A stretch of 64,000 nucleotides of DNA, from the NCBI GenBank assembly GCA_964428845.1, contig CAYRZH010000001.1, forward strand, positions 138,990-202,989. The letters run 5' to 3'. The number at the start of each line of letters is the position of its first letter. Position 1 is the first letter of the stretch. This DNA is from an uncultured Candidatus Saccharibacteria bacterium (lineage in GTDB: Bacteria; Patescibacteriota; Minisyncoccia; Phycocordibacterales; DATGWK01). The notes below the pieces were generated by a model that was not told where the DNA came from, ran no database searches, and saw nothing but the letters and a program-made list of their open reading frames with translations. A program made the translations under genes and the position numbers. Positions 40,254 through 60,248 of this stretch are shown here, piece by piece.

Positions 40254-40255
40254 AC

Positions 40256-40804: not shown

Positions 40805-40809
40805 TAACC

Positions 40810-41388: not shown

Positions 41389-41393
41389 ACACT

Positions 41394-41936: not shown

Positions 41937-41987
41937 GTTATACACAGTTTACCACCTTGACCAATAGGGTATGGGGGTATATACTAA

Positions 41988-42404: not shown

Positions 42405-42514
42405 TAACAGCACGCATTAAGCGCAAGCTTTTTTCGTGCTGTTTTTAATATCCTTTTTCGAGGATATTTTTGTTATTTACTAACCTAAATTAATAACTGC
42501 ATGAAAAAAATTAT

Positions 42515-44033: not shown

Positions 44034-44045
44034 CAAACCAAAAAT

Positions 44046-44552
44046 ATGGACAAAAAACCAACAATGGAAGAGCTAATTGAAAAAGTTAATAAGCTCAAAG
44101 CTACGGGTGAACTCGATCTTTCAATGGAGGAGGATTTGAGCATAGCCATCATGAATCTCATTAGTCTTGAGGAGCATTTCTTCTTCACTGCCCAAAAAAC
44201 AGGAAAAGACGAATACTTTGATTTGCTCAATCAAACGAGAGAAATTAGAAAACAACTCTTGGCTAAAATGATTAATACACATGAGGGTGAGACATGGTGT
44301 ATTGCAAAGCATCTGCTTGCGACAACAATGCGGTTAATGGAAGTCGGCACTAAGCTTCAATCGTCCGGGAAAAAAGAAGAGTCGAGAGAGATATTCAAAA
44401 AAGCGTATGAAGTTTACTCACTTTTTTGGGCTTTGCGATTGAATCTTATCAGTGTGGCCGAAATGAAAAAAGCCGGAGACAAATCTGACCCTGACAAGCC
44501 GATGACAAAGGAAGATTTACTAAGCAAATTAGTCGATTGCTGTAAGGAATAA
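44046..44552 (+). CDS. hypothetical soluble protein
   Basis: ORF only. Confidence 0.25.
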   Translation: MDKKPTMEELIEKVNKLKATGELDLSMEEDLSIAIMNLISLEEHFFFTAQKTGKDEYFDLLNQTREIRKQLLAKMINTHEGETWCIAKHLLATTMRLMEVGTKLQSSGKKEESREIFKKAYEVYSLFWALRLNLISVAEMKKAGDKSDPDKPMTKEDLLSKLVDCCKE

Positions 44553-44569
44553 TCAATTAAAAAATAAAC

Positions 44570-45469: not shown

Positions 45470-45566
45470 TTATACACAGCACTAGTTGACATATAGGGTA
45501 TAGGGGTATAGAGTATAGGTAAAGGTCGATAATAATCAATCTAAATTACCCTATAAACCCTAAATC

Positions 45567-45839
45567 ATGTTAGATCAAAAGTTAAAAAAGAAAGCTACCC
45601 ACCGAGCCAAAATCATTCGCGGCCAGATGGACGGCTTAATAAAAGCAATCGAAGATGAGAAGTATTGTGTTGATTTGATAACGCAGTCTCGATCAATCCA
45701 GCTCTCACTCAAAAGTATGGACAGAGTGCTTCTTGCCAATCACCTTCGAGGCCATGTCAAACACATGCTTAACGATACGAAGCAGGAAAACAAAGCCATC
45801 AAAGAACTCGTTGACCTGTACGCATTGTCAAATAAATAA
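45567..45839 (+). CDS. CsoR/RcnR-family metal-sensing transcriptional repressor (single-Cys variant)
   Basis: 90-aa DUF156-like helix bundle: ...EKYCVDLITQSRSIQLSL...ANHLRGHVKH. Confidence 0.6.
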   Translation: MLDQKLKKKATHRAKIIRGQMDGLIKAIEDEKYCVDLITQSRSIQLSLKSMDRVLLANHLRGHVKHMLNDTKQENKAIKELVDLYALSNK

Positions 45840-45841
45840 CC

Positions 45842-46051
45842 ATGCGCAAAAAAATCACATCATTCTTAAAAAGGTTTGGGATGCACGAGGTGAAAGATCC
45901 TCAAACGTCCTTTGATGTTGTATGCGGCATGGAACTTACACCTGAAAAAATCAAGCACACCATAGAGCATACGGACGGCACCGCTTATCACTTCTGTTCA
46001 AAGTCGTGCAAGGATCATTTCGTCAACGATCCTCAAAAATACGTAGGCTGA
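45842..46051 (+). CDS. YHS/TRASH-domain metal-binding protein (paralog 1)
   Basis: VCGMEL...YHFCSKSCKDHFVNDPQKY matches CGM...Y-FCS..C...F..dP..Y. Confidence 0.6.
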   Translation: MRKKITSFLKRFGMHEVKDPQTSFDVVCGMELTPEKIKHTIEHTDGTAYHFCSKSCKDHFVNDPQKYVG

Positions 46052-46071
46052 TTAAAAATTAATTCAAAAAT

Positions 46072-46311
46072 ATGAAGATGTCAAAAGTGTTGCATGTTGT
46101 CAGCGTTATATCGGGAGTCTTAGGAGTCCTTTCATTTCTCGGTCTGTTTGGTGGAGGAATGATGTCTGGGTTCTCTGGGATGATGGGATATGGTGGGCAA
46201 GGTTACGCATCCATGCCCATGGGTTCAATAGGGTTCTTTTTGATCGCTATTTGGCTCCAGATCGCCACGATTCATCACATGATGCTTGAGAAGAAGGGAG
46301 AGATTGTCTAG
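46072..46311 (+). CDS. small Met/Gly-rich membrane protein
   Basis: MMSGFSGMMGYGGQGYASMPMG with flanking TM helices. Confidence 0.3.
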   Translation: MKMSKVLHVVSVISGVLGVLSFLGLFGGGMMSGFSGMMGYGGQGYASMPMGSIGFFLIAIWLQIATIHHMMLEKKGEIV

Positions 46312-46334
46312 TTAAAAACTAATAATAAAAAATT

Positions 46335-46508
46335 ATGGAAAACGACCATCCATCAAGAAAAGTGTCCGACCCAGTGTGTGGCATGGAGCTTGATATTGAA
46401 AATGTCAGACATTCATTCGAACACGAAGGTACAGAATATTATTTCTGTTCCGAGAAGTGCAAAACTGAATTTATCAATGATCCGGAGAAGTATATTAAAA
46501 AGGATTAA
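46335..46508 (+). CDS. YHS/TRASH-domain metal-binding protein (paralog 2, 57 aa; below ORF-track cutoff)
   Basis: Hand-translated: MENDHPSRKVSDPVCGMELDIENVRHSFEHEGTEYYFCSEKCKTEFINDPEKYIKKD. Confidence 0.55.
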   Translation: MENDHPSRKVSDPVCGMELDIENVRHSFEHEGTEYYFCSEKCKTEFINDPEKYIKKD

Positions 46509-46538
46509 TTATCACTCAATTAATAATTAATAAAAAAT

Positions 46539-46802
46539 ATGAATCTCTCACTAAAATCATATGGCTGGAAATGTGTCCTTGGAGCTGAAGTGGCGTATGT
46601 TCTTTGTGTGTTGGGTGGATTTCTTCCACTAAGATCTGCGGCTGGGATACAGCTTCACCACACTATCTTTGAAACTCTACCGGGTTTTGCTTGGATCAGC
46701 TTCGGTAGTTTCATCCTTGGTGCAGTCTACATGTTCGTCTTTGCTTGGGTTTTCGCTTCCTATTTTGTATGGATGCACAATTCAAGTCTTATCAATAAAT
46801 AA
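46539..46802 (+). CDS. small membrane protein
   Basis: Two TM helices. Confidence 0.25.
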   Translation: MNLSLKSYGWKCVLGAEVAYVLCVLGGFLPLRSAAGIQLHHTIFETLPGFAWISFGSFILGAVYMFVFAWVFASYFVWMHNSSLINK

Positions 46803-46814
46803 TGATTAAACTAT

Positions 46815-47096
46815 ATGCACAACCACAATAAAGACGGAGGAGGCAGAGGAATGATGTGGATGATGATCCCATGCCTACTCCTTGTTGGTGTTCTGTTTCT
46901 TGGTGGAGGCAAGTTGTCTGGAGGTGGATATCTCTGGCCAATTCTTATCGGTGTCTTTGTAATCGCACATGTCTGGATGATGTTAAGAGGACACGGTAGA
47001 CACGGGGATACTAATACGGAAGATAAAATTGATGACGCTTCCGGAAAACAATCTGACACAAAGGATGAACATAAGCATAGCGGCAGTTGCCACTAA
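46815..47096 (+). CDS. small Met/His-rich membrane protein (MHNHNKDGGGRGMMWMM...HGRHGD...HKHSGSCH)
   Basis: Met and His clusters flanking TM helices, suggesting metal binding. Confidence 0.3.
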   Translation: MHNHNKDGGGRGMMWMMIPCLLLVGVLFLGGGKLSGGGYLWPILIGVFVIAHVWMMLRGHGRHGDTNTEDKIDDASGKQSDTKDEHKHSGSCH

Positions 47097-47104
47097 AAAT
47101 CATT

Positions 47105-47746
47105 ATGGAAAACTCCTATGGCCTCTGGCCACTTGTCATCATAAATTCGCTAGTCTTCATTATCTTTGCGTTCAGCTTTACTAAGCCGAAAACATCGAGG
47201 GATTGGCGATCATTTGGCGCATTCTCAGCGTTTCTTGTTGCCCTGTTTACAGAGATGTACGGTTTTCCATTGACGATATATCTTTTCTCCGGCTGGCTCT
47301 CAACCAAGTTCCCTGGTGTTGATTTCTTTGCTCACAATTCAGGACACCTCTTTGAAGACTTCTTTGGCTGGGGTGGCGATCCACACTTCGGACCGTTCCA
47401 TATCGCCAGCTACATCCTAATTTTCTACGGCTTCGTGTTGCTCTCTAAGGCGTGGAAAGTCCTTTATAAAGCACAGCAAGATCATACTTTAGCAACCTCA
47501 GGGCCTTACGCTCGCATTCGCCATCCGCAATATGTTGGTTTCGTACTGATTATGCTCGGATTTTTCTTGCAGTGGCCTACGATCCTCACTCTTATCATGT
47601 TACCGATTCTTGTTTGGATGTATACACGCCTTGCGCGGAGTGAAGAGAAAGACTCTCAAAAAGAATTCGGAGTGGTATGGGATGAATACGCTAAAAAGAC
47701 CCCTTCTTTCATTCCCCGACGGAAAAAATTAACAGCTAATACTTAA
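47105..47746 (+). CDS. isoprenylcysteine carboxyl methyltransferase (ICMT)/phospholipid methyltransferase family membrane protein
   Basis: ARIRHPQYVGFVLIMLGFFLQWPT...RSEEK matches the ICMT/PEMT family signature. ATG at 47105. Confidence 0.55.
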   Translation: MENSYGLWPLVIINSLVFIIFAFSFTKPKTSRDWRSFGAFSAFLVALFTEMYGFPLTIYLFSGWLSTKFPGVDFFAHNSGHLFEDFFGWGGDPHFGPFHIASYILIFYGFVLLSKAWKVLYKAQQDHTLATSGPYARIRHPQYVGFVLIMLGFFLQWPTILTLIMLPILVWMYTRLARSEEKDSQKEFGVVWDEYAKKTPSFIPRRKKLTANT

Positions 47747-47751
47747 ACTAT

Positions 47752-47964
47752 ATGGAAAACAGAATCAAATCATTAATTAAAAAGCTGAGTCGGTTTGGTT
47801 TTAGTGTTAAGCCAAAAAATAAAGGTCATATAGATCCTGTGTGTGGTATGGAAGCATCAGCAGACTTATTCAAGGCTGATTACAAAGACAAAAGCTATTA
47901 TTTTTGTTCCGATCATTGTCAACAACAATTCAAAAAAGACCCAGAAACGTATATCACAAAATAA
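47752..47964 (+). CDS. YHS/TRASH-domain metal-binding protein (paralog 3)
   Basis: VCGMEASADLF...YYFCSDHCQQQFKKDPETY. Confidence 0.6.
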   Translation: MENRIKSLIKKLSRFGFSVKPKNKGHIDPVCGMEASADLFKADYKDKSYYFCSDHCQQQFKKDPETYITK

Positions 47965-47966
47965 TT

Positions 47967-48410
47967 ATGACCAACAACATCGCAAAACCAATTCTATACG
48001 GAACGATTGCAAGCGTGATTCTGCTTGGAGTTTATTTTGCGGTGCTAACACTAGTTTCCGGATGGAGTTTTGCTCAAAGTCAGTTCGCGGATTTCTGGTA
48101 TTTTATTGTCAGCTTGGTAGTAGGTTTCGGAATTCAGATTGCACTTTATCAATACATTAAGGGCTTGGTGCATAGCGGACAAGGCATGGGCAAAGTGGTT
48201 GGCGTATCAGGGACAACCTCCACGGCAGCCATGATTTCATGCTGTGCCCACTATCTAGTCAATCTGGTGCCCATTCTTGGAGTGACAGGACTCGTTACAT
48301 TTGTAGCACAGTATCAGGTTGAGCTCTTCTGGGTGGGTCTTGTTTCTAATATATTTGGTATCGGATATATGGTAACCAGAGTTATTAAATTCAAAAAAAA
48401 TCATGAGTAA
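47967..48410 (+). CDS. membrane protein (4 TM)
   Basis: Start MTNNIAKP at 47967. Hydrophobic throughout. Confidence 0.3.
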   Translation: MTNNIAKPILYGTIASVILLGVYFAVLTLVSGWSFAQSQFADFWYFIVSLVVGFGIQIALYQYIKGLVHSGQGMGKVVGVSGTTSTAAMISCCAHYLVNLVPILGVTGLVTFVAQYQVELFWVGLVSNIFGIGYMVTRVIKFKKNHE

Positions 48411-48855
48411 AGCAATAACAATACTTTCATTAGCACTTGCGTTTATAGGAGGTTTCTTGTTTTTTTATAATCCGAAATCCGCCCCTACTCCTACTCAAGA
48501 AAATTCTTCAGTATCAGAAACGCAACAAAAATGGGAATCTAAAATTAATGATCAGGCGAGTGTAACTGTAACCGTCACGCCGACTCAGCTTTCGGAGGAA
48601 TCGGGAGAATGGAAGTTTGATGTAGTCATGGATACTCACTCCGTTGAATTGGATCAAGACATGACTAAAGTTGCTATACTTATCGATGAACAGGGCAAAG
48701 AATATAAAGCACTTAACTGGGAGGGACCGACCGGAGGCCACCATAGAGAAGGCATCCTTACCTTTGACAAGATAATGCCTACTCCAAAATCTGTTGAACT
48801 AAAGATTTCCAACATAGGGGGTGTTGTCAGAACTTTTAATTGGCAACTTAAATAA
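48403..48855 (+). CDS. membrane-anchored periplasmic beta-rich protein (possible metal chaperone)
   Basis: TM followed by a soluble domain with HH (GGHHREG). Function inferred only from context. Confidence 0.25.
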   Translation: MSKAITILSLALAFIGGFLFFYNPKSAPTPTQENSSVSETQQKWESKINDQASVTVTVTPTQLSEESGEWKFDVVMDTHSVELDQDMTKVAILIDEQGKEYKALNWEGPTGGHHREGILTFDKIMPTPKSVELKISNIGGVVRTFNWQLK

Positions 48856-48856
48856 T

Positions 48857-49564
48857 ATGCAATACATCTGGTTAATCTGGAGCTTAATATTGATTGCTAT
48901 CTGGCTGGCCGTTTACATTTCTCTTCGTTCGGATAGCCAGAAAGAAGAGATGCTCATGGTCAGCTTGTGGACATCGCTTCTCGGACTAACTGAGCCTCTT
49001 TTCGTGCCAGAATACTGGTCGCCGCCGTCTTTGTTTGATTTGGCAATGCGGACAGGATTTGATATTGAAAGTTTGATCTTTTCATTTGGTATAGGAGGTC
49101 TTGCGGTTATTTTATACAGCAGAATTTTCCGGAGACAAGATATGTCAATGTCTACCAAAGAGCACCACCTGCCTCGGCACAGATTTCACCTATGGGCACT
49201 TGCATCCGCACCGGTTGTTCTTATTGTGTTATTGCTAGCAACCAGCTTAGATCCTTTGCACTCCTCGATCATTGCTATGGTCGTGGGAGGACTGGCCACC
49301 TGGTATTGCCGGCCGGATTTAAAGAAGAAGATGATCACAAGCGCGTTTATATTTTTAGCTCTTTACTTTTTTTACTTCCTGACGCTTATTGCCATATCGC
49401 CAGGCTATGTCGAGCAGGTCTGGAATCTAGAAGATATTTCAGGAATTTTAATAATTGGAATTCCCCTTGAGGAACTGCTGTTCGCCTTGAGCTTCGGTTT
49501 TATCTGGTCGAGTATTTATGAACATCTTACCTGGAAAAAATTAAAATTATTAAAACAAACATAA
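48857..49564 (+). CDS. polytopic membrane protein
   Basis: Start MQYIWLIW at 48857. About 7 TM helices. Confidence 0.3.
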   Translation: MQYIWLIWSLILIAIWLAVYISLRSDSQKEEMLMVSLWTSLLGLTEPLFVPEYWSPPSLFDLAMRTGFDIESLIFSFGIGGLAVILYSRIFRRQDMSMSTKEHHLPRHRFHLWALASAPVVLIVLLLATSLDPLHSSIIAMVVGGLATWYCRPDLKKKMITSAFIFLALYFFYFLTLIAISPGYVEQVWNLEDISGILIIGIPLEELLFALSFGFIWSSIYEHLTWKKLKLLKQT

Positions 49565-49568
49565 ATTT

Positions 49569-49745
49569 ATGGACAACAAAAATCACAATCAAAAAGTCGA
49601 GGAGAAATTACATAAATGTCCGGAATGCGGTTTGTATTATGAAGACAAATCTCAGATGGAAAAATGCAAAGTATGGTGCAAAGAACATCACAGTTGTAAT
49701 TTAGAAATTACAAGCTATGCCATTGAAAATAAGCAAAATAAATAA
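49569..49745 (+). CDS. 58-aa zinc-ribbon-like protein (CPECG...C..WC)
   Basis: Hand-translated: MDNKNHNQKVEEKLHKCPECGLYYEDKSQMEKCKVWCKEHHSCNLEITSYAIENKQNK. Confidence 0.35.
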   Translation: MDNKNHNQKVEEKLHKCPECGLYYEDKSQMEKCKVWCKEHHSCNLEITSYAIENKQNK

Positions 49746-49746
49746 T

Positions 49747-51987
49747 ATGGAGAATCATAATCATCATAAAATTCAAGAAAAAGAGGGAGTGGTTTATACC
49801 TGCCCAATGCATCCTGAAGTACAGCAGGATCGACCTGGCACTTGTCCAAAATGCGGCATGAGTCTTGTTAAGGCTGAAGTAAAAACTGATCACAGTGCTC
49901 ACGCTGGGCATGTGATGGGTGATGTGTCCAAAATGGGTTTCTGGGAGAAATTCAAAATGAGCATGTCGATGACTATGGGCATGGATCACACGGGTCTTGC
50001 AGGACGGGAGATGGCGCGACTCATGGAGATAGATATTAGAAACAAGTTCTTTTTTTCACTCATTCTGACGCTTCCCATAATTCTATATTCTCCTCTAGGT
50101 ACTGAGTTTCTTAAACTCAATCTTCCATCGCCAATAGCCCTTCCTTGGCTTCTCTTTATTCTAACAACGCCAGTATTCTTTTATTCCGGATGGATTTTTC
50201 TATACTCAACATATTTCGCTCTGAAAAGTAAAATGCTGAACATGGCCGTGCTTATTGCTGTCGGCATTACGGCGGCCTACGGCTTCAGTGTCTTACTAAC
50301 CTTAACTGGTAGTACAGACTCATACTACGAAGCGGCCGCTATGCTTATTACCTTTGTCTTGTTCGGCCACTGGATGGAGATGAAATCACGGCGCGGAACG
50401 ACGGATGCCCTTCAAGCACTTTTCAATCTTGTACCGCCTCAAGCAAGATTATTTAAGGACGGCAAAGAGATAATGGTTTCTACTTCCGATATACAACTCG
50501 GCGACATCATTATTCTTAAACCGGGAGACAAGGTTCCTGTTGATGGTGAAATTATTGAGGGAGAAACAGCTATTGATGAATCCCTGGTTACCGGAGAATC
50601 AATTCCTACCACTAAAAAGATTGGAGATCAGGTAATTGGTGGATCAATCAACACGGCTGGGTCAGTAAAATTTAAAGCAACAAAAATCGGCAAGGATACC
50701 GCTCTTGCTCGAATTGTAGCGATGGTTGAAAAAGCGCAGAATTCAAAAGCCCCGGGGCAGAGACTTGCCGACAGATTTGCCAAGTATTTGGTTATTGGGG
50801 CTATTGGATCAGGACTTCTCGTATTTATTATTTGGTACTTTATAGTCGGCGTGCCGATTATGCTGGCATTGTCCTTTGCCATCGCTACGGTTGTAATCGC
50901 CTGTCCTGATGCTCTTGGACTAGCCACTCCAACAGCTGTTGCAGTTGGGACCGGTCTTGGTGCAAAACATAACATTCTTATTAAAGACGCGCCGACGCTT
51001 GAACAAGTCTCAAAAATTCAGGCGATCGTGCTCGATAAAACAGGTACGCTCACCGAAGGAAAACCGAAGGTAACCGATATAGCTACTGCGGATGGCTTTG
51101 ATGCAGACGAGGTACTTCGTTTGGTTGGCGCGGCAGAGGCAAAATCGTCTCACCCTTTAGCAGGCGCTGTACTTGATGAATTAAAATCTCGCAAACTCGA
51201 ATTACCACAAAGCGTTGAAAAATTTGAAAACTTATCCGGTCTTGGGGTAAAAGCTATCGTTGAAAATAAAAATATCCTTGTCGGGACAGTTAAGTTGATG
51301 AGGGAGAATAAAATAGAGCTTGGCAAGCTTGAGCAAAAGATTAATGAGTTTTTGGACCGGGGAGAAACCATTATGGTTCTTGCTGTTGATGGTGCAATAA
51401 AAGCAGTCATAGGAGCTGCCGATCCAATAAAGCCAACTGCGAAAGAAGCGATAAAAAAGATGAAAGATTTGGGAATTGAAATAGCAATGATTACTGGTGA
51501 CAACAAGACAACTGCAGAAAAGGTGGCACAACAGATCGGTATAGAACGAGTTTTTTCCGAAGTGATGCCCGAGGATAAAGCAAGCTATGTGAAGAAGCTT
51601 CAAAGCGAGGGAAAATTCACAGCAATGGTTGGCGACGGGGTTAATGACGCCCCGGCGCTTGCCCAAGCTGATGTGGGCATCGCTATTGGTGCTGGTACGG
51701 ATGTCGCTATTGAAACGGCAAAAGTAGTTCTGATGAAATCAGATCCTGCGGATATCCTTCGAGCTATAATCCTCTCCAAGGCGACCATCCGCAAAATGAA
51801 GCAGAATCTTTTCTGGGCTTCGATATATAACATTCTTGCAATACCAGTTGCCGGAGGAATTCTATATCCTAATTTCGGTATTATGCTCCGTCCAGAATTC
51901 GCTGCTCTTCTTATGAGTGTGTCCTCGATCATTGTTGCTGTTAACGCGGTATTACTCAAACGAGTCGAGAAGGATTTAATGGCGTAA
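49747..51987 (+). CDS. copA: heavy-metal (copper-type) P1B-ATPase with N-terminal Cys/His metal-binding motif and CPD (not CPC) TM motif
   Basis: DKTGTLTEG phosphorylation site, GDGVNDAPAL, TGES. N-terminus YTCPMHPEV...GTCPKCGMSL. TM6 reads VIACPDALGLATP. Confidence 0.8.
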   Translation: MENHNHHKIQEKEGVVYTCPMHPEVQQDRPGTCPKCGMSLVKAEVKTDHSAHAGHVMGDVSKMGFWEKFKMSMSMTMGMDHTGLAGREMARLMEIDIRNKFFFSLILTLPIILYSPLGTEFLKLNLPSPIALPWLLFILTTPVFFYSGWIFLYSTYFALKSKMLNMAVLIAVGITAAYGFSVLLTLTGSTDSYYEAAAMLITFVLFGHWMEMKSRRGTTDALQALFNLVPPQARLFKDGKEIMVSTSDIQLGDIIILKPGDKVPVDGEIIEGETAIDESLVTGESIPTTKKIGDQVIGGSINTAGSVKFKATKIGKDTALARIVAMVEKAQNSKAPGQRLADRFAKYLVIGAIGSGLLVFIIWYFIVGVPIMLALSFAIATVVIACPDALGLATPTAVAVGTGLGAKHNILIKDAPTLEQVSKIQAIVLDKTGTLTEGKPKVTDIATADGFDADEVLRLVGAAEAKSSHPLAGAVLDELKSRKLELPQSVEKFENLSGLGVKAIVENKNILVGTVKLMRENKIELGKLEQKINEFLDRGETIMVLAVDGAIKAVIGAADPIKPTAKEAIKKMKDLGIEIAMITGDNKTTAEKVAQQIGIERVFSEVMPEDKASYVKKLQSEGKFTAMVGDGVNDAPALAQADVGIAIGAGTDVAIETAKVVLMKSDPADILRAIILSKATIRKMKQNLFWASIYNILAIPVAGGILYPNFGIMLRPEFAALLMSVSSIIVAVNAVLLKRVEKDLMA

Positions 51988-52009
51988 ATAATATAAAATT
52001 AATAAATTT

Positions 52010-52369
52010 ATGAAAAATAAATCAATTCTACTCATACAAATAGGTCTTGCGGCGGTATTTCTCGCCAATGCTCTTACGGTAATATTTAACCCCGAAGAAT
52101 TTATTGAGATTATAGAGAATTCTTTTATTGGAGTTCTCATCCCATCTGGGATCGCACTAACAATTATTGCTATAAATGACGGCTTGATGACACTTCTTAT
52201 TCTTTTTAGTAGGAAGTGGCGACAGTTAATTTTTGGCTGGGCGATTATCTGGATTGTGGTTGTGCTGATTGCAATCGGTAAGCCACTGGATATTCTTGAG
52301 GAGTCGGCATTCCTTTTTATGGCAATTGCTTTGTTCTTTGAAGCAAAAAATTATAAATTAAACAATTAA
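52010..52369 (+). CDS. small membrane protein (DoxX-like)
   Basis: Four hydrophobic helices. Confidence 0.25.
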   Translation: MKNKSILLIQIGLAAVFLANALTVIFNPEEFIEIIENSFIGVLIPSGIALTIIAINDGLMTLLILFSRKWRQLIFGWAIIWIVVVLIAIGKPLDILEESAFLFMAIALFFEAKNYKLNN

Positions 52370-52374
52370 ATCAT

Positions 52375-53979
52375 ATGAAAAATAAACTAATCTTGGGAAT
52401 CATTGCGGTCGTAATCGTTATCGGTGGAATTGTCATTCTGCAGCGGGGAGATTCGGGCAACAAAGTAAGTGCCGGTACTTTTTCTACTGATATTGCTGGT
52501 CTGCCAGAGGCAAAATCATCTGAGACAGTCAAGCTTAAAAATGGCGATACGTATAACATGACCGCCTCAATCGTAAAGAAAACAATCGGTAATAGCGTGG
52601 TTAAAATGCTTGCCTACAATGGAATGATCCCAGGACCCTTGATCAAGGTGGAGCAAGGCGCAGAGGTTACTTTGAATTTCACCAATAATACTGATGTTGA
52701 TACCACAATTCACTCGCACGGCGTACGTCTTGAGAACAAATTCGATGGTGTACCAGATGTAACCCAGAAAGAAGTTAAGCCGGGCGAATCATTCACTTAC
52801 AAGATCAAGTTCCCTGATGAAGGTATGTACTGGTATCATCCGCACATTCGGGAAGACTATGCTCAAGAGCTTGGTCTCTACGGCAACTACCTTGTCGTGC
52901 CGAATGATCCCAACTATTGGTCACCGGTTAATCGTGAAGTCGCGCTGTTCGTAGATGACATCCTGATGGAAAATGGCAAAATCGCGACGTTCAGCAAGGC
53001 GTCTGCTGATCGTACTCTCATGGGTCGGTTTGGCAACACTATGCTCGTGAATGGCGAAACAGATTATGCACTTACCGCCAAGACGGGAGAAGTGATCCGC
53101 TTCTACATCACCAACTCGGCAAATACAAGAACGTTCAATCTTTCCATCCCCGGCGCAAAGATGAAGCTTGTGGGTGCTGATGGCGGCAAGTACGAGCGCG
53201 AGACTTGGAGCGATGGCGTGATATTGAGTCCTTCCGAACGTACCATTGTCGAGGTGCTATTTGCGAACGCTGGATCATACACGCTTCAGCACAAAACTCC
53301 GGAGAAAACTTACACGCTCGGAATAATCACTGTTGCGAATGAGAAAGTTAGCACTTCGTTCGAGAAAGAGTTTCTAACGCTCCGTTCGAATAAAGACATT
53401 CAATCAGAGATTGATGCATTCAGGTTGTCCTTCGATAAGCCAGCAGACAAACGTCTAAAGCTCACGATTGATATGGGTATGCAAATGCAGGGCATGATGC
53501 AAAGTAACACTGGCGGTCACAACATGAACATGATGGGCAATAATCAGATGATGTCCAACAGTGAAATGGTAGCAAGCGGTGATCCTATCGAATGGGAAGA
53601 AAACAATGCGGCGATGAATACTATGTCGAATCCGGAAATGATGAAGTGGGTTATCCAAGACGAAGACACCGGCAAGAAAAATATGGATATTGATTGGAAA
53701 TTCAAAGTCGGAGACAAAGTAAAAATCAAAATCACCAATGATCCGAACTCCATGCACCCAATGCAACACCCCATCCACTTCCACGGCCAACGATTCTTAG
53801 TGCTCTCAACAAACGGCAAACCAAATGACAATCTTGTGTGGAAAGATACCGCTCTTATTCCGAATGGCGACACGATTGAGATCCTCCTCGATGTTACAAA
53901 CCCCGGTGAATGGATGGCACACTGTCACATTGCCGAGCATTTGGAAGCAAGTATGATGTTTGGCTTCAAGGTCGAGTAA
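52375..53979 (+). CDS. multicopper oxidase (CueO/CopA-like) with methionine-rich insert
   Basis: Cu ligand motifs HSHG, WYHPH, HPIHFHG, HCHIAEH. Met-rich segment MGMQMQGMMQSNTGGHNMNMMGNNQMMSNSEM. Signal-anchor N-terminus. Confidence 0.8.
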   Translation: MKNKLILGIIAVVIVIGGIVILQRGDSGNKVSAGTFSTDIAGLPEAKSSETVKLKNGDTYNMTASIVKKTIGNSVVKMLAYNGMIPGPLIKVEQGAEVTLNFTNNTDVDTTIHSHGVRLENKFDGVPDVTQKEVKPGESFTYKIKFPDEGMYWYHPHIREDYAQELGLYGNYLVVPNDPNYWSPVNREVALFVDDILMENGKIATFSKASADRTLMGRFGNTMLVNGETDYALTAKTGEVIRFYITNSANTRTFNLSIPGAKMKLVGADGGKYERETWSDGVILSPSERTIVEVLFANAGSYTLQHKTPEKTYTLGIITVANEKVSTSFEKEFLTLRSNKDIQSEIDAFRLSFDKPADKRLKLTIDMGMQMQGMMQSNTGGHNMNMMGNNQMMSNSEMVASGDPIEWEENNAAMNTMSNPEMMKWVIQDEDTGKKNMDIDWKFKVGDKVKIKITNDPNSMHPMQHPIHFHGQRFLVLSTNGKPNDNLVWKDTALIPNGDTIEILLDVTNPGEWMAHCHIAEHLEASMMFGFKVE

Positions 53980-54133
53980 AAGCTCGTCACAAAGGCAACC
54001 AAAGGGCAAATAGGGCTCTTAAAAGAGTCCTATTGCTTTTCTCAATGTGCTTAATATTTGTAATTATAGGACTAATAATATAGCTATCTCTTGAGTTGAA
54101 AGGATGAGCGTTTTTTGTTAAGATGAATGGCTT

Positions 54134-55309
54134 ATGAACATAATAATTTCGTTGGTTATCGGGGGTATTCTGATGGCATCTGTACCCCTCATTAGTTCAA
54201 AAATTTCAATTAGCGAATCAAAACAAGAAGACCAAACAGAACAAGCTAAAAATACGGATCAGAAAAAGGTCGCCGAGTATAAAATACAATCCGGCGACAC
54301 TTTTACAAGTATTTTAGGGTCTTTCCAAATACCTTATGATCAGGCGTTGGCGATAATCAACTCCTCAAAAGAGGCATTTGATTTTACTAAAATTCAGGCA
54401 GGCAGAGTTATTAAGCTGATCTTTATCAACGAGGCTTTTGCTTCGATGGAATATCCGCTTACGAGCGAAACAGTTGTTATTGTAGTAAAGGAAGACGACT
54501 CTTTTAAAGCGACCACAAAACCTATTCCGTATCAAATAAAAGATGTAGCCGCAAATGGAACTATAAGCGATTCACTTTTCGTTTCAGCTCAAAACGCCGG
54601 CATTGAGGATAAAATTACTATGGAGCTTGCCGATATATTCTCGAGTGATATCGACTTTGCTACTGATATCCGAAATGGTGATTCATTTTCTGTTGTCTAT
54701 GAAAAACGATCATTAGACAGCAAGGATGCCGGAGTTGGCAACGTATTGGCGGCTCGATTCATCAACAGCGGTACAACATATACAGCATTTCGTTACAACG
54801 ATAAATTCTATGACGAGGAAGGAAAATCTCTTGCTCGGCAGTTTCTTAAATCTCCCCTTAACTATGCTCAGATAAGTTCTGGCTATAGCTATAAGAGAAC
54901 AAACCCAGTGACTAAACAGGTCACTCCGCATCGTGCAATCGATTATGCCGCCGATACCGGTACTCCAGTTATTGCAACGGCCGATGGAAAAGTAACCACA
55001 GCAGGATCAAAGGGCGGACTTGGTATTACCGTGGAGTTGAAACATGGTAGTTATCTCACTCAATATGCTCATCTTTCAAAGATCGCTAAGGATATTAAAA
55101 ATGGTGCGGACGTAGTGCAAGGTGATGTAATTGGTTATGTAGGATCAACTGGCATTTCAACAGGCCCCCATTTACAGTACGCCATGTTTGAAAACGGCAG
55201 TCCACTCAACCCTCTTACCGCTGATTTTTCACGCGGAGAAGCAATAAAAGATTCCGAAATGACGACCTTTTCAGAAATCAAAGGTAAGTTCCAAAAGTTG
55301 CTAGATTAA
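54134..55309 (+). CDS. M23 family metallopeptidase with LysM-like domain
   Basis: YKIQSGDTFTSIL (LysM-like). C-terminal HRAIDYAADTGTPV...GSTGISTGPHLQY (M23 HxxxD / HxH). Confidence 0.7.
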   Translation: MNIIISLVIGGILMASVPLISSKISISESKQEDQTEQAKNTDQKKVAEYKIQSGDTFTSILGSFQIPYDQALAIINSSKEAFDFTKIQAGRVIKLIFINEAFASMEYPLTSETVVIVVKEDDSFKATTKPIPYQIKDVAANGTISDSLFVSAQNAGIEDKITMELADIFSSDIDFATDIRNGDSFSVVYEKRSLDSKDAGVGNVLAARFINSGTTYTAFRYNDKFYDEEGKSLARQFLKSPLNYAQISSGYSYKRTNPVTKQVTPHRAIDYAADTGTPVIATADGKVTTAGSKGGLGITVELKHGSYLTQYAHLSKIAKDIKNGADVVQGDVIGYVGSTGISTGPHLQYAMFENGSPLNPLTADFSRGEAIKDSEMTTFSEIKGKFQKLLD

Positions 55310-55375: not shown

Positions 55376-55588
55376 ATGACTGACCGCACTTCTATTCCCC
55401 AAAATGATGATGACCTTACATCTCTTACCAAAGAGGCTCTTGCTGATATCCTAGGCCGAGAACCTACTCGGCAAGAGATTTTACGTGCTCATGCTGGATT
55501 TAAACGTATGGCCTTTGTGATGATGGAGCATTTAGAGAAGGAGAATAAGGAGGAAAAGAGCAACAAAAAGAGAAGGGCTAACGGATAG
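55376..55588 (+). CDS. small protein P1 (paralog of 56770-57048 gene)
   Basis: LADILGREPTRQEILRAHAGFKRMAFVMMEHL matches LADVLGREPSRQEVWKVHAGFKRMAFMLLDHM. Confidence 0.4.
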   Translation: MTDRTSIPQNDDDLTSLTKEALADILGREPTRQEILRAHAGFKRMAFVMMEHLEKENKEEKSNKKRRANG

Positions 55589-55618
55589 CCTCTTCGTTAT
55601 TTTCAATGAGCTGTGTTT

Positions 55619-55909
55619 CTAAAACAAGTGATTCGTACACATCAAACAAGCGCATACCACACAAGGGGCAGTTGGAAACGGCAATAGAAAAACAATCGAT
55701 AACTTTCCGAACCTTGGCTTTTTCGGAGCGATGTATCTTTCAGCAGGTTTTATGGTGATTTCAATCCTCGTTTTTATCTCGATCTCAAGAAGTTTCTGAC
55801 AGCTGGGACAACGCATCGTGAATGAAGCATTGGAATTGAATGCTCCGTTCTTGAAGACGATGTTCGTGCAATGCGGGCAATTGCCAATATTTAATGGTTC
55901 TTGTTCCAT
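55619..55909 (-). CDS. zinc-ribbon protein (CPHC...CPSC) with C-terminal hydrophobic/Cys tail
   Basis: Two CxxC pairs 22 residues apart. Confidence 0.35.
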   Translation of the reverse strand: MEQEPLNIGNCPHCTNIVFKNGAFNSNASFTMRCPSCQKLLEIEIKTRIEITIKPAERYIAPKKPRFGKLSIVFLLPFPTAPCVVCACLMCTNHLF

Positions 55910-56034
55910 ATTATTCGCTGGGGGTTGCTGGTGCTTGGCGTTGATTCCGGAGCTTCAGAAACCTTTGATCATGGAATTAATTAATAAACGTTTCCGGTCG
56001 GGATCGACTACCTCCCGATCGGCTAACGGGCAAA

Positions 56035-56568
56035 TCAGGTGTCATTCATCGCCGTCCTCTTTGCTCCATTCATCGACATCTTTTCAACGAGCTTCGATTT
56101 CATCTCCCCCAAGTTATCCACAGTTTTTTCATCACGTGCGTAATTCTTTTTATTTAAATCTTTTTCTTTATTCTTGTTAGTAGTTCCGGCTGACTGATCT
56201 GACCGGTCTGTATGACCGATGTGCCGGTCTGACTGACCGAGCTTGTTTGAGGTCGGTCTGTGTGACCTATCTAGTTTCAGCAGGTAGTACACGTTGTGGT
56301 AGCGTTGTCGGCCCTTGCGGACGAGATCCAGTTTGATGAGTTCCCGGATACCTCTTTGCACGCTCGAGATGCTGGCTCCTATTTTGCTGGCAATATGCCT
56401 GTGGGACGGAAAGCAAAAACCCTCCTGGTTGGAGTACTCGGCTAGGCAGTTATAAATAGCGATGCCGATCGGACCCAGTGTGCTTCCGTATTCATCGAGA
56501 AGTACCTTGCTGATCCAATACCAGTCACCTTTACGTAGATCCCTGATTGTTATTTTTTCATCCGGCAT
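56035..56568 (-). CDS. winged-helix replication-initiator/replisome-organiser-like protein with internal nucleotide repeats
   Basis: wHTH region (IASKIGASISSVQRGIRELIKLDLVRKG). 3' coding region 56160-56290 contains repeated gaccggtctg/ggtcggtctg units. True start MPDEK at 56568. Confidence 0.4.
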   Translation of the reverse strand: MPDEKITIRDLRKGDWYWISKVLLDEYGSTLGPIGIAIYNCLAEYSNQEGFCFPSHRHIASKIGASISSVQRGIRELIKLDLVRKGRQRYHNVYYLLKLDRSHRPTSNKLGQSDRHIGHTDRSDQSAGTTNKNKEKDLNKKNYARDEKTVDNLGEMKSKLVEKMSMNGAKRTAMNDT

Positions 56569-56769
56569 ACACGAAAAATAAAGGCGTGGTAGTCGACCGA
56601 AACTCCGACCGCGCCTTATCGCTCCTCTCAATGAGGTCACATGCCATTGAGGGGAGAGTAAGGCTCGGTCTACCATTCTCTAGATTTCGGCAGAGCACGA
56701 TCAATGTTATCCATCGCTCGGCAGAAGTCTCGTCGTGTAATTGGATTTTCAAGTTCCCGGATGGTGAAG

Positions 56770-57048
56770 TTAGTCAGCAGACTCTCCCTTCTCGCCAGCA
56801 GGTCTCTCCTCGTCGGTGGCTTCCGAGTCATCCGTTTCCACATCGTCCGGATAAGTCTCTTGATCAGGATTTTCGTTCTCATGTTTTTTGATTTGATCCA
56901 TGTGATCCAAAAGCATGAATGCCATACGCTTAAAGCCAGCGTGGACTTTCCAAACTTCTTGTCGGGACGGCTCTCGGCCGAGTACGTCGGCGAGCGCAGT
57001 GCGGGTAAGCTCGACGAGAGCTTCCTCATCTTTGTCTGGTTTGGACAT
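56770..57048 (-). CDS. small protein P2 (paralog of P1) with acidic tail
   Basis: See P1. Sits immediately downstream of the cro-like gene. Confidence 0.4.
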   Translation of the reverse strand: MSKPDKDEEALVELTRTALADVLGREPSRQEVWKVHAGFKRMAFMLLDHMDQIKKHENENPDQETYPDDVETDDSEATDEERPAGEKGESAD

Positions 57049-57102
57049 GCGGTGGTTTGGTTCATAGAAGTGACCTCACACTTTTATTGACCCCACCTTG
57101 CC

Positions 57103-57309
57103 TTACGGCAAGAAAACTTCCTCTACTCTGACTCCGAGAGCCAAAGCGATCCGCTGGGCAGTTTCGAGATTCGGACGCTTTCGTCCTGTCTCGTACCGGC
57201 TGATCGCAGTGTTGTGCTTAAAACCAAGAATTCGGGCTAGCTGGTATTGCGTTAGCCCCTTCTTGATCCGAAGGTCGCGGAGTTTTATATTCACTGGTGA
57301 TTTGTTCAT
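57103..57309 (-). CDS. Cro/XRE-family HTH repressor (68 aa)
   Basis: LTQYQLARILGFKHNTAISRYETG HTH. Divergent from the cI-like gene. Confidence 0.65.
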   Translation of the reverse strand: MNKSPVNIKLRDLRIKKGLTQYQLARILGFKHNTAISRYETGRKRPNLETAQRIALALGVRVEEVFLP

Positions 57310-57338
57310 AAATTTACTTTTAGACCCCTACAGTCATA

Positions 57339-57454
57339 TTAAGCAAAAATGCTTAATTGGTCAATATAGGAGCTTGTGGATAAGCAAAGTTGCTTAATAT
57401 TTACTAATTTGCTATACTAAGCCTATAAGGTCGCAGTTATTGGATTAAGCAAAA
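57339..57454. promoter_or_regulatory. divergent promoter/operator region with three TTAAGCA-type operator sites
   Basis: ttaagca-aaaa-tgcttaa (57339-57356), taagcaa-ag-ttgctta (57381-57397), half-site ttaagcaaaa (57445-57454). -10 tatact at 57413. Confidence 0.55.
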
Positions 57455-57463
57455 TCAACAAAT

Positions 57464-58183
57464 ATGTCATTTGGTTCATATCTAAAAAAGCAAAGAGAGT
57501 CGCATAATTGGACAATAAAAGAGATAGCTGAACGGCTCGGGTTTTCGTCGAGCTACATCAGCCAGCTCGAAAATGGGGCGCGTATCCCGTCCCAGAAACA
57601 GCTCGCTACTTTTGCTAAGGCCTACGAACTTCCGGAGGAAGAAGTGAGGCAGCATTGGACTGAGGGTAAAATCCAGCAGGTCAGCAAGGAAGGAAAATAT
57701 AAATTTGATATTAAAGATGTCGGCGAGAAGCAGGTGCAGGAAGCCACAAGCAAACTCGAACAGGGGCTCGAAGAATTGAGAAAAAGTTTCTCAACTGACG
57801 GCGGTCATTTTAAATTGCCGGTGCTCGTAGCGATCCCTATTGATGATCTCGACGGTCATCTGAGTCGAACGAGCGACTTCGTTATGATGCCGAAGGAGTC
57901 GATCATTCCCGGTCACCGAGTGTATGGAGTTCGAGTGTCGGAGCATCCTTTGCCGGATGCTGGCATTCTTGCCGGAGATTTTATTATCCTCGATGCCGAT
58001 GTTGCTCCAAAAAACGGCGACATTGTCATCATGAGCACTCCTGATGGCTTGACTATGACCTATTACCACGAACGAGGGGATCACTTGGAAATTCGGCCGG
58101 AGAAAGAAGGTCTTAAGAAATCTTATCCTCTGAGTGAGGCCAAGATGTTAGGAAGGCTCATATATCACATAAAAAAATATTAA
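57464..58183 (+). CDS. CI/LexA-like repressor (XRE HTH + S24 peptidase-like C-terminal domain)
   Basis: N-terminal HTH (WTIKEIAERLGFSSSYISQLENG). C-terminal beta domain (GDFIILDADVAPKNGDIVIM). Confidence 0.65.
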   Translation: MSFGSYLKKQRESHNWTIKEIAERLGFSSSYISQLENGARIPSQKQLATFAKAYELPEEEVRQHWTEGKIQQVSKEGKYKFDIKDVGEKQVQEATSKLEQGLEELRKSFSTDGGHFKLPVLVAIPIDDLDGHLSRTSDFVMMPKESIIPGHRVYGVRVSEHPLPDAGILAGDFIILDADVAPKNGDIVIMSTPDGLTMTYYHERGDHLEIRPEKEGLKKSYPLSEAKMLGRLIYHIKKY

Positions 58184-58238
58184 TCGCCAGGGCTCTCCAA
58201 ACGGAGAGCCCTCAAGCTATCTAACGAAAAAACAAATT

Positions 58239-59760
58239 ATGAACTACTTAATCTACGGCCGCGTCTCTACCTCTCGTCAGGCCGAACGAGAACTGAGTAT
58301 TCCGGCGCAGGTCAAAGCGTGCCAAAAGTACGGCATGGATCATCACTGGAGTCTTGCACCGGATGGCGTCTATGAGGAAAAGGGCGAATCGGCTCGGACG
58401 ACCGTTCGTCCCCAGCTTCAGAAAATGCTTCACCGGGCAAAGACCGACCCGAAAGTTGATGCGATCTTAATGCACAAACTTGATCGCATGTGTCGCAATG
58501 TCGCCGACTACGCGGCAATCAAGATGATGCTCAAAAAGCACGACGTCCGGCTGATCTCGGTAGTCGAGCAATTCGATGAGTCTTTCTCCGGAGAGTTGGT
58601 TGAAAACATCATGTCCTCAATTGCCCAGTGGACGTCCCAGAACATCAGCTGGGAGGTCAAAAAGGGTCTTAGAGAGGCCGTAGAGCGTGGTCGGTTCCCC
58701 GGATATGCGCCAACGGGCTACTTGAACGACAAGAAAACAAAATCGCTCATTGTTGACCATCTACGAGCACCATTCGTAAAGATGGCCTTTGAGCGTTATG
58801 CAACCGGCAAGTATAGTTACGATTCTCTTGCGGCCTATCTTGCCGAGCGCGGTTTCAAAAGCAAATATGGCAATTTAGTGAGACGAACGTCGATTGAACA
58901 TATCCTCGCAAACCCAATTTACTACGGCCTCGTCAAAACACGTTCGGCAACATGTCAGGCAAACTTCCCAAAACTCATCACCAAGAAGCTCTTTGACGAC
59001 GTCCAAGAAATCATCCAACAACACAATCACGCCGCCGATCGGAGTCGGAAGCACTCGTACCCAATGTCCGGCTTTATGCGGTGCGCCGTGTGTGGTTCTA
59101 CGCTCTGTGGGCAGATGCAAAAGGGTCATCTCTACTACTCATGTACCCATTGGAATGACCGTAAGTGTACAGAACGAAAGTACATTCGATGGGAGCTTGT
59201 TGAGCAACAGGTAGAAAATCATCTTTCTCGCATACAACTACCGGATCGCTTTAAGAGAGTCTTGGATGAGTACATCGAGCACTTTGCGACAGAGCGATTA
59301 GGTCAAGAAGAAAAGGAGCGTAAAAGTCTCAAGCAGGAGCTGGTGAGAGTGCAACAGCAGATACGCAACATAGTCGTAGATCGCTCAAAACGCATCATGG
59401 ACGCCGAGGTGTTTATAAAGATTCAAGACGAGCTCTTGAGGGAAAAAGAGATGTATCAGGATCGTTTACGGGTGCTTGAGGGTAAGTCTGATAAGTTCGT
59501 GCAGAAGTTCAATGAGATACTGGAATTCGCAGATCATGCAGACAAAGTGTTCCAGACCAGTAGCATGCACCAGAAGCGTTTAGTCGTGAAGCTCTGTTTT
59601 GACGGCTTCACCGTGCAAAATCAAAAACTGACGCCAATCTGGACGCCAGTCTTTGATGTTCTTATGGACTTAAACTCTAGCAACTTCGAGCCCCCAAAAG
59701 TCGGCGGCAAGGGCTCGAAAGACTCGAAAACCCTTGCCGTGACTAAAGTTCAAAGTTGCC
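58239..59760 (+). CDS. large serine recombinase/integrase (true 3' end uncertain; the ORF reads through tRNA-Ser)
   Basis: N-terminal resolvase domain (YGRVSTSRQ catalytic Ser region). Recombinase domain. Zinc-ribbon CAVCGS...CTHWNDRKC. Coiled-coil. Beyond ~59760 the frame translates the tRNA antisense (GGEIRTHG). Confidence 0.7.
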
Positions 59761-59764
59761 AATC

Positions 59765-59854
59765 TGGCGGAGGAGGTGAGATTCGAACTCACGGGACCCT
59801 TGCGAGCCCTCTAGTTTTCAAGACTAGCGCATTCGACCGCTCTGCCACTCCTCC
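59765..59854 (-). tRNA. tRNA-Ser (anticodon UGA), CCA encoded
   Basis: Reverse complement GGAGGAG-TG-GCAG...CTAGT-CTTGAAA-ACTAG-long variable arm-GTGAG-TTCGAAT-CTCAC-CTCCTCC-G-CCA. 90 nt. Confidence 0.8.
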
Positions 59855-59939
59855 TTGTTTTTGTCAGGTTTGTAGTTTACAAACCTTACTGCTACACACT
59901 TTTCAATTCACTTTCCTCCCTCACCGGTGGGGATTCCCT

Positions 59940-60248
59940 CTATTCCTTATTTTCCACAGCGCCGACTTTCTCCTTCCCATCTCCCGCCCTCTCCACTTCC
60001 ATGGTGACCGAATACTTTCTTGCCACAAAGAAAAGATAAATAATTTCAAGAATGCCGGCAGTATTTGCGACAAGAATTATGATAAACCAGATTCGGTGTG
60101 ACAGTCGGGCGGCTTTCCAAACAGCAAGTCCTTTCCATACCAAGGTCCAGACCATGAGCAATCCAAAAATCACAGGGTGGCTGTTGAAGAAAGAGGCGGT
60201 TTGGCCAAACATTTGTCCAAGTTGCCCAAATTGATTGAAGGATTCCAT
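59940..60248 (-). CDS. small membrane protein
   Basis: Two TM helices. Conflicts only with non-credible read-through extensions. Confidence 0.3.
   Translation of the reverse strand: MESFNQFGQLGQMFGQTASFFNSHPVIFGLLMVWTLVWKGLAVWKAARLSHRIWFIIILVANTAGILEIIYLFFVARKYSVTMEVERAGDGKEKVGAVENKE

Follow-up and report, generated by a model that had tools for sequence, protein, structure and literature searches.

We analysed a 64,000-nucleotide stretch of DNA, hereafter the window, from an uncultured Candidatus Saccharibacteria bacterium (contig CAYRZH010000001.1, forward-strand positions 138,990 to 202,989), and describe a candidate integrative element that abuts a tRNA-Ser(UGA) gene (59765..59854, minus strand; detected by ARAGORN and scored at 60.6 bits against Rfam RF00005), its integration target. 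The core of this element, of about 4.3 kb, consists of a leftward operon in which, read from left to right, lie the genes for a Zn-ribbon protein, a replication initiator (rep), a small protein named P2 and a Cro-like protein (cro), then of the rightward genes for a CI-like repressor (cI) and an integrase (int), with the antisense tRNA coming immediately after. Every feature named in an earlier annotation of this DNA, here called the original prediction, was recovered in its place.

The integrase is a large serine recombinase (LSR), encoded on the plus strand by a 620-aa open reading frame (ORF; 58239..60101; Pfam, PHROG). Its resolvase catalytic domain (Resolvase, PF00239, E = 6.8e-29, residues 5-152) contains the catalytic-serine motif YGRVSTSRQ, in which S10 is nearly invariant among 28 homologues; the Recombinase (PF07508, E = 2.6e-14) and Zn_ribbon_recom (PF13408, E = 2.4e-8) domains are also present, with cysteines C282, C285, C302 and C310 invariant, and the protein matches the PHROG 95 integrase at E = 6e-97. 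The conserved part covers 508 aa (58239-59764), and the antisense tRNA and host DNA supply the other 112 aa: the gene ends ...GTTGCCAATC in element DNA, no stop precedes the tRNA, and the latter is translated in the integrase frame as ...SGGGGEIRTHG.... This frame running through the tRNA, pointed out in the original prediction, proves to be a property of the whole family. We scanned one genome per GTDB species and found 47 loci besides that of the window, so that the junction and frame counts refer to 48 loci. All 48 integrases extend into foreign sequence, by 4 to 112 aa, and none meets a stop codon on the way from its conserved C-terminus to the junction, which rules out a pseudogene artefact. 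The short tails stop at ATT-TGA, in tRNAs with the T-loop variant TTCAAAT. A protein search with the integrase returned about 35 clusters of 60-97% identity, all of which end ...V(Q/R)x(C/W)xSGGxGxI and diverge thereafter. Lacking its own stop, the gene takes its C-terminal tail from whatever DNA follows the junction; and since it spans the attachment site, this tail must differ between the integrated and the excised state. Between cI and int we also noticed a strong GC-rich hairpin without a T-run, GGGCTCTCCaaacGGAGAGCCC (58190-58215), which may be an attenuator limiting integrase read-through from the cI promoter.

The right junction, attR (59720..59790, plus strand), was delimited by alignment of the 48 loci and by dyad analysis. 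The element-side consensus is ...CCTTGnnnnnnnnnnRGTTCnAAnTTGnnnATC and the tRNA side always begins TGGCGG(A/G), the invariant junction being ...GGTTCAAAGTTGnnnATC directly followed by TGGCGG. In the window, the element arm reads ...CCTTGCCGTGACTAAAGTTCAAAGTTGCCAATC, the core is TGGCGG, and the other half-site is made of the tRNA acceptor and T-arm. The only part common to all occupied tRNAs is TGGCGGA (59765-59771, plus strand), which corresponds to the CCA, the discriminator and the first acceptor bases. From the eighth base on, the sequence depends on the host and is complementary to the host 5' acceptor strand, even where the element arms are identical (L001, L003, L004, L006 and L041; L numbers designate loci). 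As the junction is invariant while the tRNA bodies are host-specific, the tRNA is target DNA and not cargo. No copy of the tRNA 3' end was found anywhere in the 64-kb window, and thus no duplicated tRNA fragment. The attR site shows dyad symmetry between GGTTCAAA, in the element, and TTCGAACC, in the T-arm, centred on C4 of TGGCGG: 12 of 26 pairs are complementary around this centre, as against about 7 at other centres.

When the species-genome loci and the metagenome hits are counted together, 104 distinct tRNAs are occupied. The four usual anticodons of tRNA-Ser are all used (gct, 37; gga, 27; cga, 20; tga, 11), as is tRNA-Asp(gtc) in 8 cases, and a single tRNA was called as Ser(act). The CCA is encoded in 103 of these 104 tRNAs, as against 11 of the 24 unoccupied Ser/Asp tRNAs of the same contigs (Fisher p = 1.5e-10). 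An encoded CCA is either required by the enzyme or brought in by the element. Judging from the alignments, the crossover should fall within TGGCGGA or at its left edge. We propose that the recombinase would insert the element at the 3' end of tRNA-Ser(UGA) by a crossover inside TGGCGGA; the tRNA body would remain host DNA, the gene would stay intact and no long direct repeat would be formed, the element arm GGTTCAAAG... mimicking the T-arm motif in inverted orientation. Two junction variants were seen: in L094 a 23-nt tRNA 3' fragment follows the integrase and a complete tRNA-Ser(gga) lies 160 nt further, and in L161 the tRNA lacks the T-arm.

The same gene order beside an antisense tRNA occurs in the 47 further GTDB species genomes, all of which (47/47) are Patescibacteria, as well as on about 60 metagenome contigs. 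The hosts are Vogel-, Kaiser-, Yonath-, Azam-, Nomura- and Magasanikbacteria, together with unnamed Paceibacteria. Between the named groups the integrases are 73-99% identical, which implies recent horizontal spread. All seven core ORFs are intact, in the window as in about 30 loci. Between the window and L002 the integrases are 99% identical, and the two elements sit at tRNA-Ser(tga) and tRNA-Ser(cga), respectively, with unrelated right flanks. That an integrative element with a large serine recombinase lies at this tRNA gene, as had been proposed, is thus supported: the same core is found at five tRNA species and in different hosts, and relatives are empty at the site. No DNA similarity to the element was detected in 50,697 phage or 72,556 plasmid records; full-text searches of the literature found no description of the family, and exact-sequence look-ups of the window's flanking proteins returned no record. 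Contigs of metagenome-assembled genomes often end within the element (18 loci), as expected if it were repeated or polymorphic in the sampled populations.

The original prediction had called for a search of related genomes for an empty tRNA-Ser site that would define both ends. Empty sites were found and attR could be defined; attL was not located. In two relatives recognized by their PilM (L053 and L056, 56-57% identity), the site has neither element nor integrase. Their backbone reads tRNA-Arg(gcg), a gene of 152 aa, a variable stretch of 2-6 kb, tRNA-Ser(tga), DUF5652, RuvX, PilM and tRNA-Arg(tct), and their tRNA-Ser differs from that of the window by one or two bases. The interval that measures 2-6 kb in these relatives measures 33 kb in the window (26.4-59.76 kb).

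The two halves of the core diverge from a control region of 154 nt (57310..57463), which was dissected by reading the sequence, with a repeat finder and with a promoter scan. On its left lies cro (57103..57309, minus strand; HTH_3, Pfam E = 5e-17), the first gene of the leftward operon, and on its right cI (57464..58183, plus strand), whose product combines a helix-turn-helix (HTH; HTH_3/HTH_31, Pfam) with a C-terminal domain of S24 fold (PF00717, E = 3.7e-7). Operator O1, TTAAGCAaaaaTGCTTAA (57339-57356), is placed between the -35 (TTGACC) and -10 (TAATAT) boxes of the leftward promoter, of spacing 17; O2, aTAAGCAaagtTGCTTAA (57380-57397), overlaps the -35 of the rightward promoter (TTGCTT ... 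TATACT); and O3 is a half-site, TTAAGCA (57445-57451). Two divergent HTH repressor genes therefore share palindromic operators placed over their promoters. The Cro-like protein is 73-100% identical in all loci, and about 30 related loci retain both promoters and the same arrangement of operators. In the lineages with a divergent CI (L008, L031) the operator changes with the repressor, to the variant TTAGCAAATnTGCTAA. The divergent cro/cI pair with TTAAGCA operators described in the original prediction is therefore found as described, and is conserved across the family.

The S24-like nature of CI stood in part, the HTH and the fold being present and the catalytic residues absent. Alignment of CI to LexA structures, with the E. 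coli LexA sequence as reference, places Pro at S119 and Tyr or Thr at K156 of the self-cleaving dyad. Of 33 CI family members, none has the catalytic Lys and 3 have the Ser. Without this Ser/Lys dyad, LexA-like self-cleavage and an SOS trigger of the RecA type are unlikely; we rejected RecA/LexA-type induction on this ground, and induction would have to proceed via another signal. From the anatomy of the region, CI would bind the two palindromes and the half operator (TTAAGCA-N4-TGCTTAA), and would silence the leftward operon, that is cro, P2, a further small gene named orfX, rep and the Zn-ribbon gene.

The rep gene (56035..56676, minus strand) encodes a lambda-O-like replication initiator with an HTH_36 winged helix (Pfam PF13730, E = 1.7e-9), with matches to fifteen PHROG families of replication-initiation or O-like type (best E = 1e-13). 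The iteron-like repeats that had been noticed within this gene hold up as three 17-nt repeats in 56203-56269, each of them a dyad (CGGTCAnnnAGACCG), located at 56253-56269, 56224-56240 and 56203-56219. On the sense strand of rep they follow one another as TAGGTCAcacAGACCGA, TCGGTCAgtcAGACCGG and TCGGTCAtacAGACCGG, after which come a degenerate fourth copy (about 56187-56203) and an AT-rich 40-mer, AACAAGAATAAAGAAAAAGATTTAAATAAAAAGAATTACG (56139-56178), the whole (56139..56269) forming the putative origin. The repeats and the 40-mer are conserved in the family; the 40-mer is near-invariant at the DNA level in 27 loci whereas the Rep proteins are just 52-84% identical, and conservation beyond that of the protein argues for a cis-acting DNA unwinding element. 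A winged-helix initiator is thus found with repeats and an AT-rich stretch in its own gene, and its binding to these iterons is predicted. No helicase loader of the lambda P or DnaC type was found in the core, where the gene downstream of rep encodes the 96-aa Zn-ribbon protein.

We consider it likely that the region represents the core module, on the tRNA side, of a Patescibacteria genetic island able to integrate and to replicate itself, apparently an integrative plasmid or tycheposon-like island of a variant not described before. Large serine integrases are expected to need a separate directionality factor for excision, and here P2 or orfX would probably play this part. Once derepressed, Rep would bind the dyad iterons in its own gene, which adjoin the AT-rich unwinding element, in the manner of lambda O at ori-lambda, and would then replicate the excised circle. 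Compact, conserved and shared across classes, with a defined recombinase, a precise target, and an immunity region and origin that could be mapped, the family looks actively mobile.

Three small genes of the leftward operon have resisted assignment: P2, orfX and the Zn-ribbon protein gave no significant match in Pfam and PHROGs (E up to 10), nor when AlphaFold2 (AF2) models were compared to the PDB with Foldseek. P2 (56770..57048, minus strand) is a 92-aa core protein, a helical hairpin with an acidic disordered tail, for which the AF2 model has a predicted local distance difference test score (pLDDT) above 90 at residues 10-50. It is present in every complete element, its relatives form at least 300 protein clusters, all unnamed, and by position and conservation we regard it as a candidate recombination directionality factor or regulator. 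The gene orfX (56670..56882, minus strand), which was not in the gene list of the original prediction, encodes a basic helical protein of 70 aa in another frame than P2. The two frames share 113 nt, within the part of P2 that encodes the acidic tail, and the stop codon of orfX shares bases with the start codon of rep (ATGGTAG, replaced by GTGGTAG in other loci). The orfX peptide, ...TRKPPTRRxLLARRESLLxNFTIRELENPxxRRDFCRAMDNIDRALPKSREW, is 37-100% conserved in more than 55 loci with the ATG kept, and the substitutions between loci are typical of coding sequence. The Zn-ribbon protein (55619..55909, minus strand), encoded by the last gene of the operon, has a CxxC...CxxC motif and a hydrophobic C-terminus; it is found in nearly all complete loci, at 35-90% identity, with only weak matches to Zn-ribbon profiles.

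The left side of the element is less sharply drawn. The DNA common to the family ends 4.25-4.4 kb from the tRNA, at the block AAAGCTCGCCACAGGGGCAAACAAATGGC and a bidirectional terminator that follow the Zn-ribbon gene. In L004, L006, L023 and L045 the left block joins the stop codon of a multicopper oxidase gene straight to the Zn-ribbon gene. The same block is found in the window, in degenerate form (AAGCTCGTCACAAAGGCAACCAAAGGGC, with a terminator hairpin; 53980..54034, plus strand) and directly after the oxidase stop, so that the two genes lying between it and the core, encoding an M23 peptidase and P1, constitute an insertion. This junction between oxidase stop and left block is shared by five loci at four different tRNA-Ser species. 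The M23 peptidase (54134..55309, plus strand; Csd3-like, Pfam) travels with the core, since beside the elements of L002, at tRNA-Ser(cga), and of L003, at tRNA-Ser(gct), it is 96% and 84% identical, respectively. P1 (55376..55588, plus strand) is a divergent paralogue of P2 (53% identity over 59 aa, E = 1e-22) that occurs only in the window, L002/L040 and L061, outside the family core; between P1 and the Zn-ribbon gene stands a bidirectional hairpin (55575-55591). Since P1 is lineage-specific, the inverted P1/P2 pair, listed in the original prediction among the unusual traits of the element, is not a design feature. Nor could the proposed unit of about 4.5 kb bounded at 55376 be retained, as the Zn-ribbon gene and its terminator mark the beginning of the core, the left block lies at 53980-54034 and the cargo beyond it recurs. 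As a possible left boundary we looked for direct or inverted repeats of the right arm or of the tRNA 3' end, and none exceeded the shuffle level.

Left of the block lies a copper-resistance cargo (49717..53979, plus strand; Pfam), with a heavy-metal P-type ATPase (49717-51987, plus strand) and the multicopper oxidase (52375-53979, plus strand). In L004, at tRNA-Ser(gct), the ATPase and the oxidase are 88-90% identical to those of the window, level with the integrase (90%). The cargo shared with L004 reaches back to about 46.2 kb, and that shared with L006 and L045 to about 39.5 kb. From 39.5 to 54 kb the window holds a copper and thiol-redox cluster (DsbA-like thioredoxin, DsbD, redoxin, ICMT-like methyltransferase, ATPase and oxidase), and parts of this island (39500-53979) recur left of the core in L003, L004, L006, L023 and L045. 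Across the family, the genes that recur on the left at differing tRNAs include the P-type ATPase (8 loci), the multicopper oxidase (5 loci), a PD-(D/E)XK-like protein recognized from sequence motifs (6 loci) and a 990-aa protein with PHP and AAA ATPase domains (5 loci); proteins resembling type I and type III restriction subunits, as read from their sequences, are also present in left flanks. We propose that these left genes would belong to, or have come with, the same element, bringing M23 peptidase, copper ATPase and oxidase here, and restriction or defence functions elsewhere. As judged from the shared DNA, the unit that is, or once was, mobile in the window would measure at least 13.5 kb (46.2-59.76 kb), inside the 33-kb variable segment. 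Before about 33 kb the window holds ordinary core genes (PBP, RuvAB, PolA, Fpg, Mur ligase, PurL).

Further traces were seen in this segment. An ORF at 38271-38948 (plus strand) is the truncated C-terminus (AAA_21 match) of a PHP and AAA ATPase of about 990 aa, which is intact as cargo in L011, L015, L028 and L039. The neighbouring amidase (34872-35438) is found again to the left of the L014 and L046 elements. PurL (1285 aa) and a cyclopropane-fatty-acid synthase (27558-32772) have a G+C content of 0.51-0.54, above that of the surroundings; as they lie inside the segment that varies between relatives, they may also be acquired.

Several observations weigh against a mobile, self-replicating island. 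The left attachment site was not located, no direct or inverted copy of the right end rising above the shuffle level, and the left-end motif of some relatives, TTCGTCCCACGGCTCG, is absent from the window; the cargo might be what earlier insertions have left behind, outside any single excisable unit. Pfam, PHROG and fold searches revealed no gene for a directionality factor, a helicase loader, packaging or transfer. The longest foreign integrase tail, of 112 aa, is that of the window copy. Finally, 75 integrase 3' ends from metagenomes and 87 protein clusters yielded no circle or attP of this family, and all of them end in the tRNA-derived SGG; about 60 of the 75 ends are joined to tRNA-Ser or tRNA-Asp. 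The family thus offers a dyad-symmetric attR with no duplicated tRNA fragment, and neither attL nor attP was found in our searches. Because no excised or episomal form was found, the label 'episome-like' of the original prediction stays an inference. Among the candidates tried as excised forms, ENA contigs of about 3.3 kb were chromosomal fragments, and contigs carrying the exact P2 of the window were short linear pieces. Continuations of the integrase into DNA other than tRNA occurred only after truncated integrase fragments, and were insertions of a second LSR family or a remnant in another organism; one of the candidates for attP, L152, is likely a chimeric contig that runs into a high-GC efflux-pump gene.

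The question arises as to whether such an element is still able to move. The family may once have been mobile and the copy in the window, perhaps most copies, have become fixed in the chromosome, the cargo being ordinary island DNA and the repressor, integrase and Rep being kept for another role or slowly decaying. The missing attP and circular form, the left end that could not be defined, the M23 peptidase and P1 inserted between left block and core, and the truncated integrase fragments in other contigs all fit this scenario. However, decay or fixation accounts poorly for core ORFs that are all intact, here and in some 30 loci, for operators, iterons and AT-rich 40-mer that are kept at the DNA level, for near-identical elements at different tRNAs, and for the many assemblies that break within the element as they do in repeated or polymorphic sequence. 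We therefore judge the scenario improbable.

Less probable still, in our view, is a phage satellite akin to the phage-inducible chromosomal islands (PICI), or the lysogeny module of a larger temperate phage, induced by a helper and packaged in capsids: the integrase, the repressor/cro switch and a Rep with an internal origin match the PICI layout, a CI without self-cleavage makes a helper-encoded anti-repressor plausible, and one related locus is on a contig listed as viral in IMG/VR, but that locus is a chromosomal insertion at tRNA-Ser carrying defence genes, the small proteins had no PHROG match, the left flanks hold metal-resistance, restriction and defence genes, and capsid, terminase, portal, tail or packaging-redirection genes (terS, cpm, ppi and capsid protein among those sought) were found in none of about 30 complete loci, in the core or within 10 kb to the left. 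A prophage was rejected for want of structural genes, the IMG/VR match being a tRNA-Ser insertion.

The reading as an integrative, self-replicating island can be set against known systems. The integrases of phiC31, Bxb1, A118, TP901-1 and SPbeta (SprA) share with ours the resolvase, recombinase and zinc-ribbon domains and perhaps also the lack of long identity between ends and the dyad symmetry around a short core, here seen at attR. However, the best phage integrases are only 25-32% identical to that of the window; the phage enzymes target a protein-coding gene, and ours the 3' CCA end of tRNAs of five species, from a gene without its own stop and a non-viral core of about 4.3 kb. In phage lambda, ori-lambda lies inside the O gene, in its linker region. 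The likeness to lambda O extends to the N-terminal winged helix and to dyad iterons followed by an AT-rich stretch in the coding sequence itself, and that to lambda CI/Cro to divergent HTH repressors sharing palindromic operators over both promoters; in contrast to lambda, the element has no P-like helicase loader, no Ser/Lys dyad in CI and no phage morphogenesis genes. The integrative and conjugative elements of actinomycetes (AICEs), such as pSAM2, SLP1 and pMEA300, are small tRNA-integrated elements with int, rep with its origin and repressors, which can replicate after excision. Our element resembles them in its tRNA integration, int, rep with origin and repressor, whereas AICEs mostly have a tyrosine integrase, a duplicated tRNA 3' segment and an FtsK-like transfer gene, none of which was found here. 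The marks of Islander-type islands, a tyrosine integrase and a displaced tRNA 3' fragment at the far end, are likewise absent.

Tycheposons of Prochlorococcus, judged by their published definition, are alike in having an integrase beside a tRNA, a small replication module, regulators and niche cargo, in building islands at tRNAs, and in lacking capsid and conjugation genes. An LSR is used by 27 of 937 integrase-carrying tycheposons (Hackl et al., bioRxiv 10.1101/2020.12.28.424599). All members of our family use a serine recombinase, whereas a lineage-specific tyrosine recombinase, together with a common set of hallmark-gene profiles, is counted among the marks of tycheposons, and the host phylum differs. 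Moreover, our integrase gene faces and overlaps the tRNA, the ends carry no partial-tRNA repeats, and the initiator is lambda-O-like where theirs is a primase or helicase. What is distinctive of the family is the combination of a serine integrase, the tRNA CCA end as target, a stopless integrase gene, a lambda-O-like replicon and hosts of the candidate phyla radiation (CPR).

Patescibacteria (CPR) make up a large and mostly uncultured part of bacterial diversity, with tiny genomes, and few mobile elements have been described for them. The present family accounts for some CPR genomic islands, and would explain how copper-resistance and defence genes pass among reduced genomes. It is also a clear exception to the rule of thumb by which tRNA genes are targeted by tyrosine, and not serine, integrases. 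The integrase with its tRNA attB, the rep gene with its origin and the repressor with its operators are potential parts for integration or shuttle vectors in organisms that are hard to manipulate. More tentatively, and we would not press the point, a cut inside the discriminator-CCA could mean that the element donates the CCA to its target, that the integrase tail reads out the state of integration, and that an occupied site can be used again, so that elements stack. If this were true, a replicon of about 4.3 kb whose targets range over tRNA-Ser and tRNA-Asp would shuttle naturally across many classes of Patescibacteria and be a ready-made genetic tool, and successive stacking at tRNAs would build CPR genomic islands.

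A particular class of loci bears on such stacking. In L082, L085/L118 and L121, a C-terminal fragment of the integrase and TGGCGG are followed by an AT-rich spacer and AAGTTCGAAC, which is palindromic with the element arm, with a motif whose distance from the core exceeds that of the T-loop motif by 4 nt. In L121 there comes thereafter an element of the second LSR family (23-27% identical), which itself reads into tRNA-Ser. The simplest reading is that a newcomer was inserted between the end of the resident integrase and the tRNA. A newcomer placed at the integrase end plus TGGCGG supports a crossover in TGGCGG and explains how islands can grow at tRNAs; it suggests stacked insertions at one tRNA.

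The remnant mentioned above is repeated in one organism (L068, L151, L172, L174, L177). The second LSR family reads antisense into tRNA-Ser in L085, L121, L068, L151 and L177, and in several contigs lies beside a leftover C-terminus of a window-type integrase. In L121, moreover, inverted repeats of about 350 bp (263-655 and 2635-3131) flank an ABC transporter and a cro-like gene, and both repeats end exactly at CCGCCA/TGGCGG, as if an inversion or rearrangement by a serine recombinase had used the att core.

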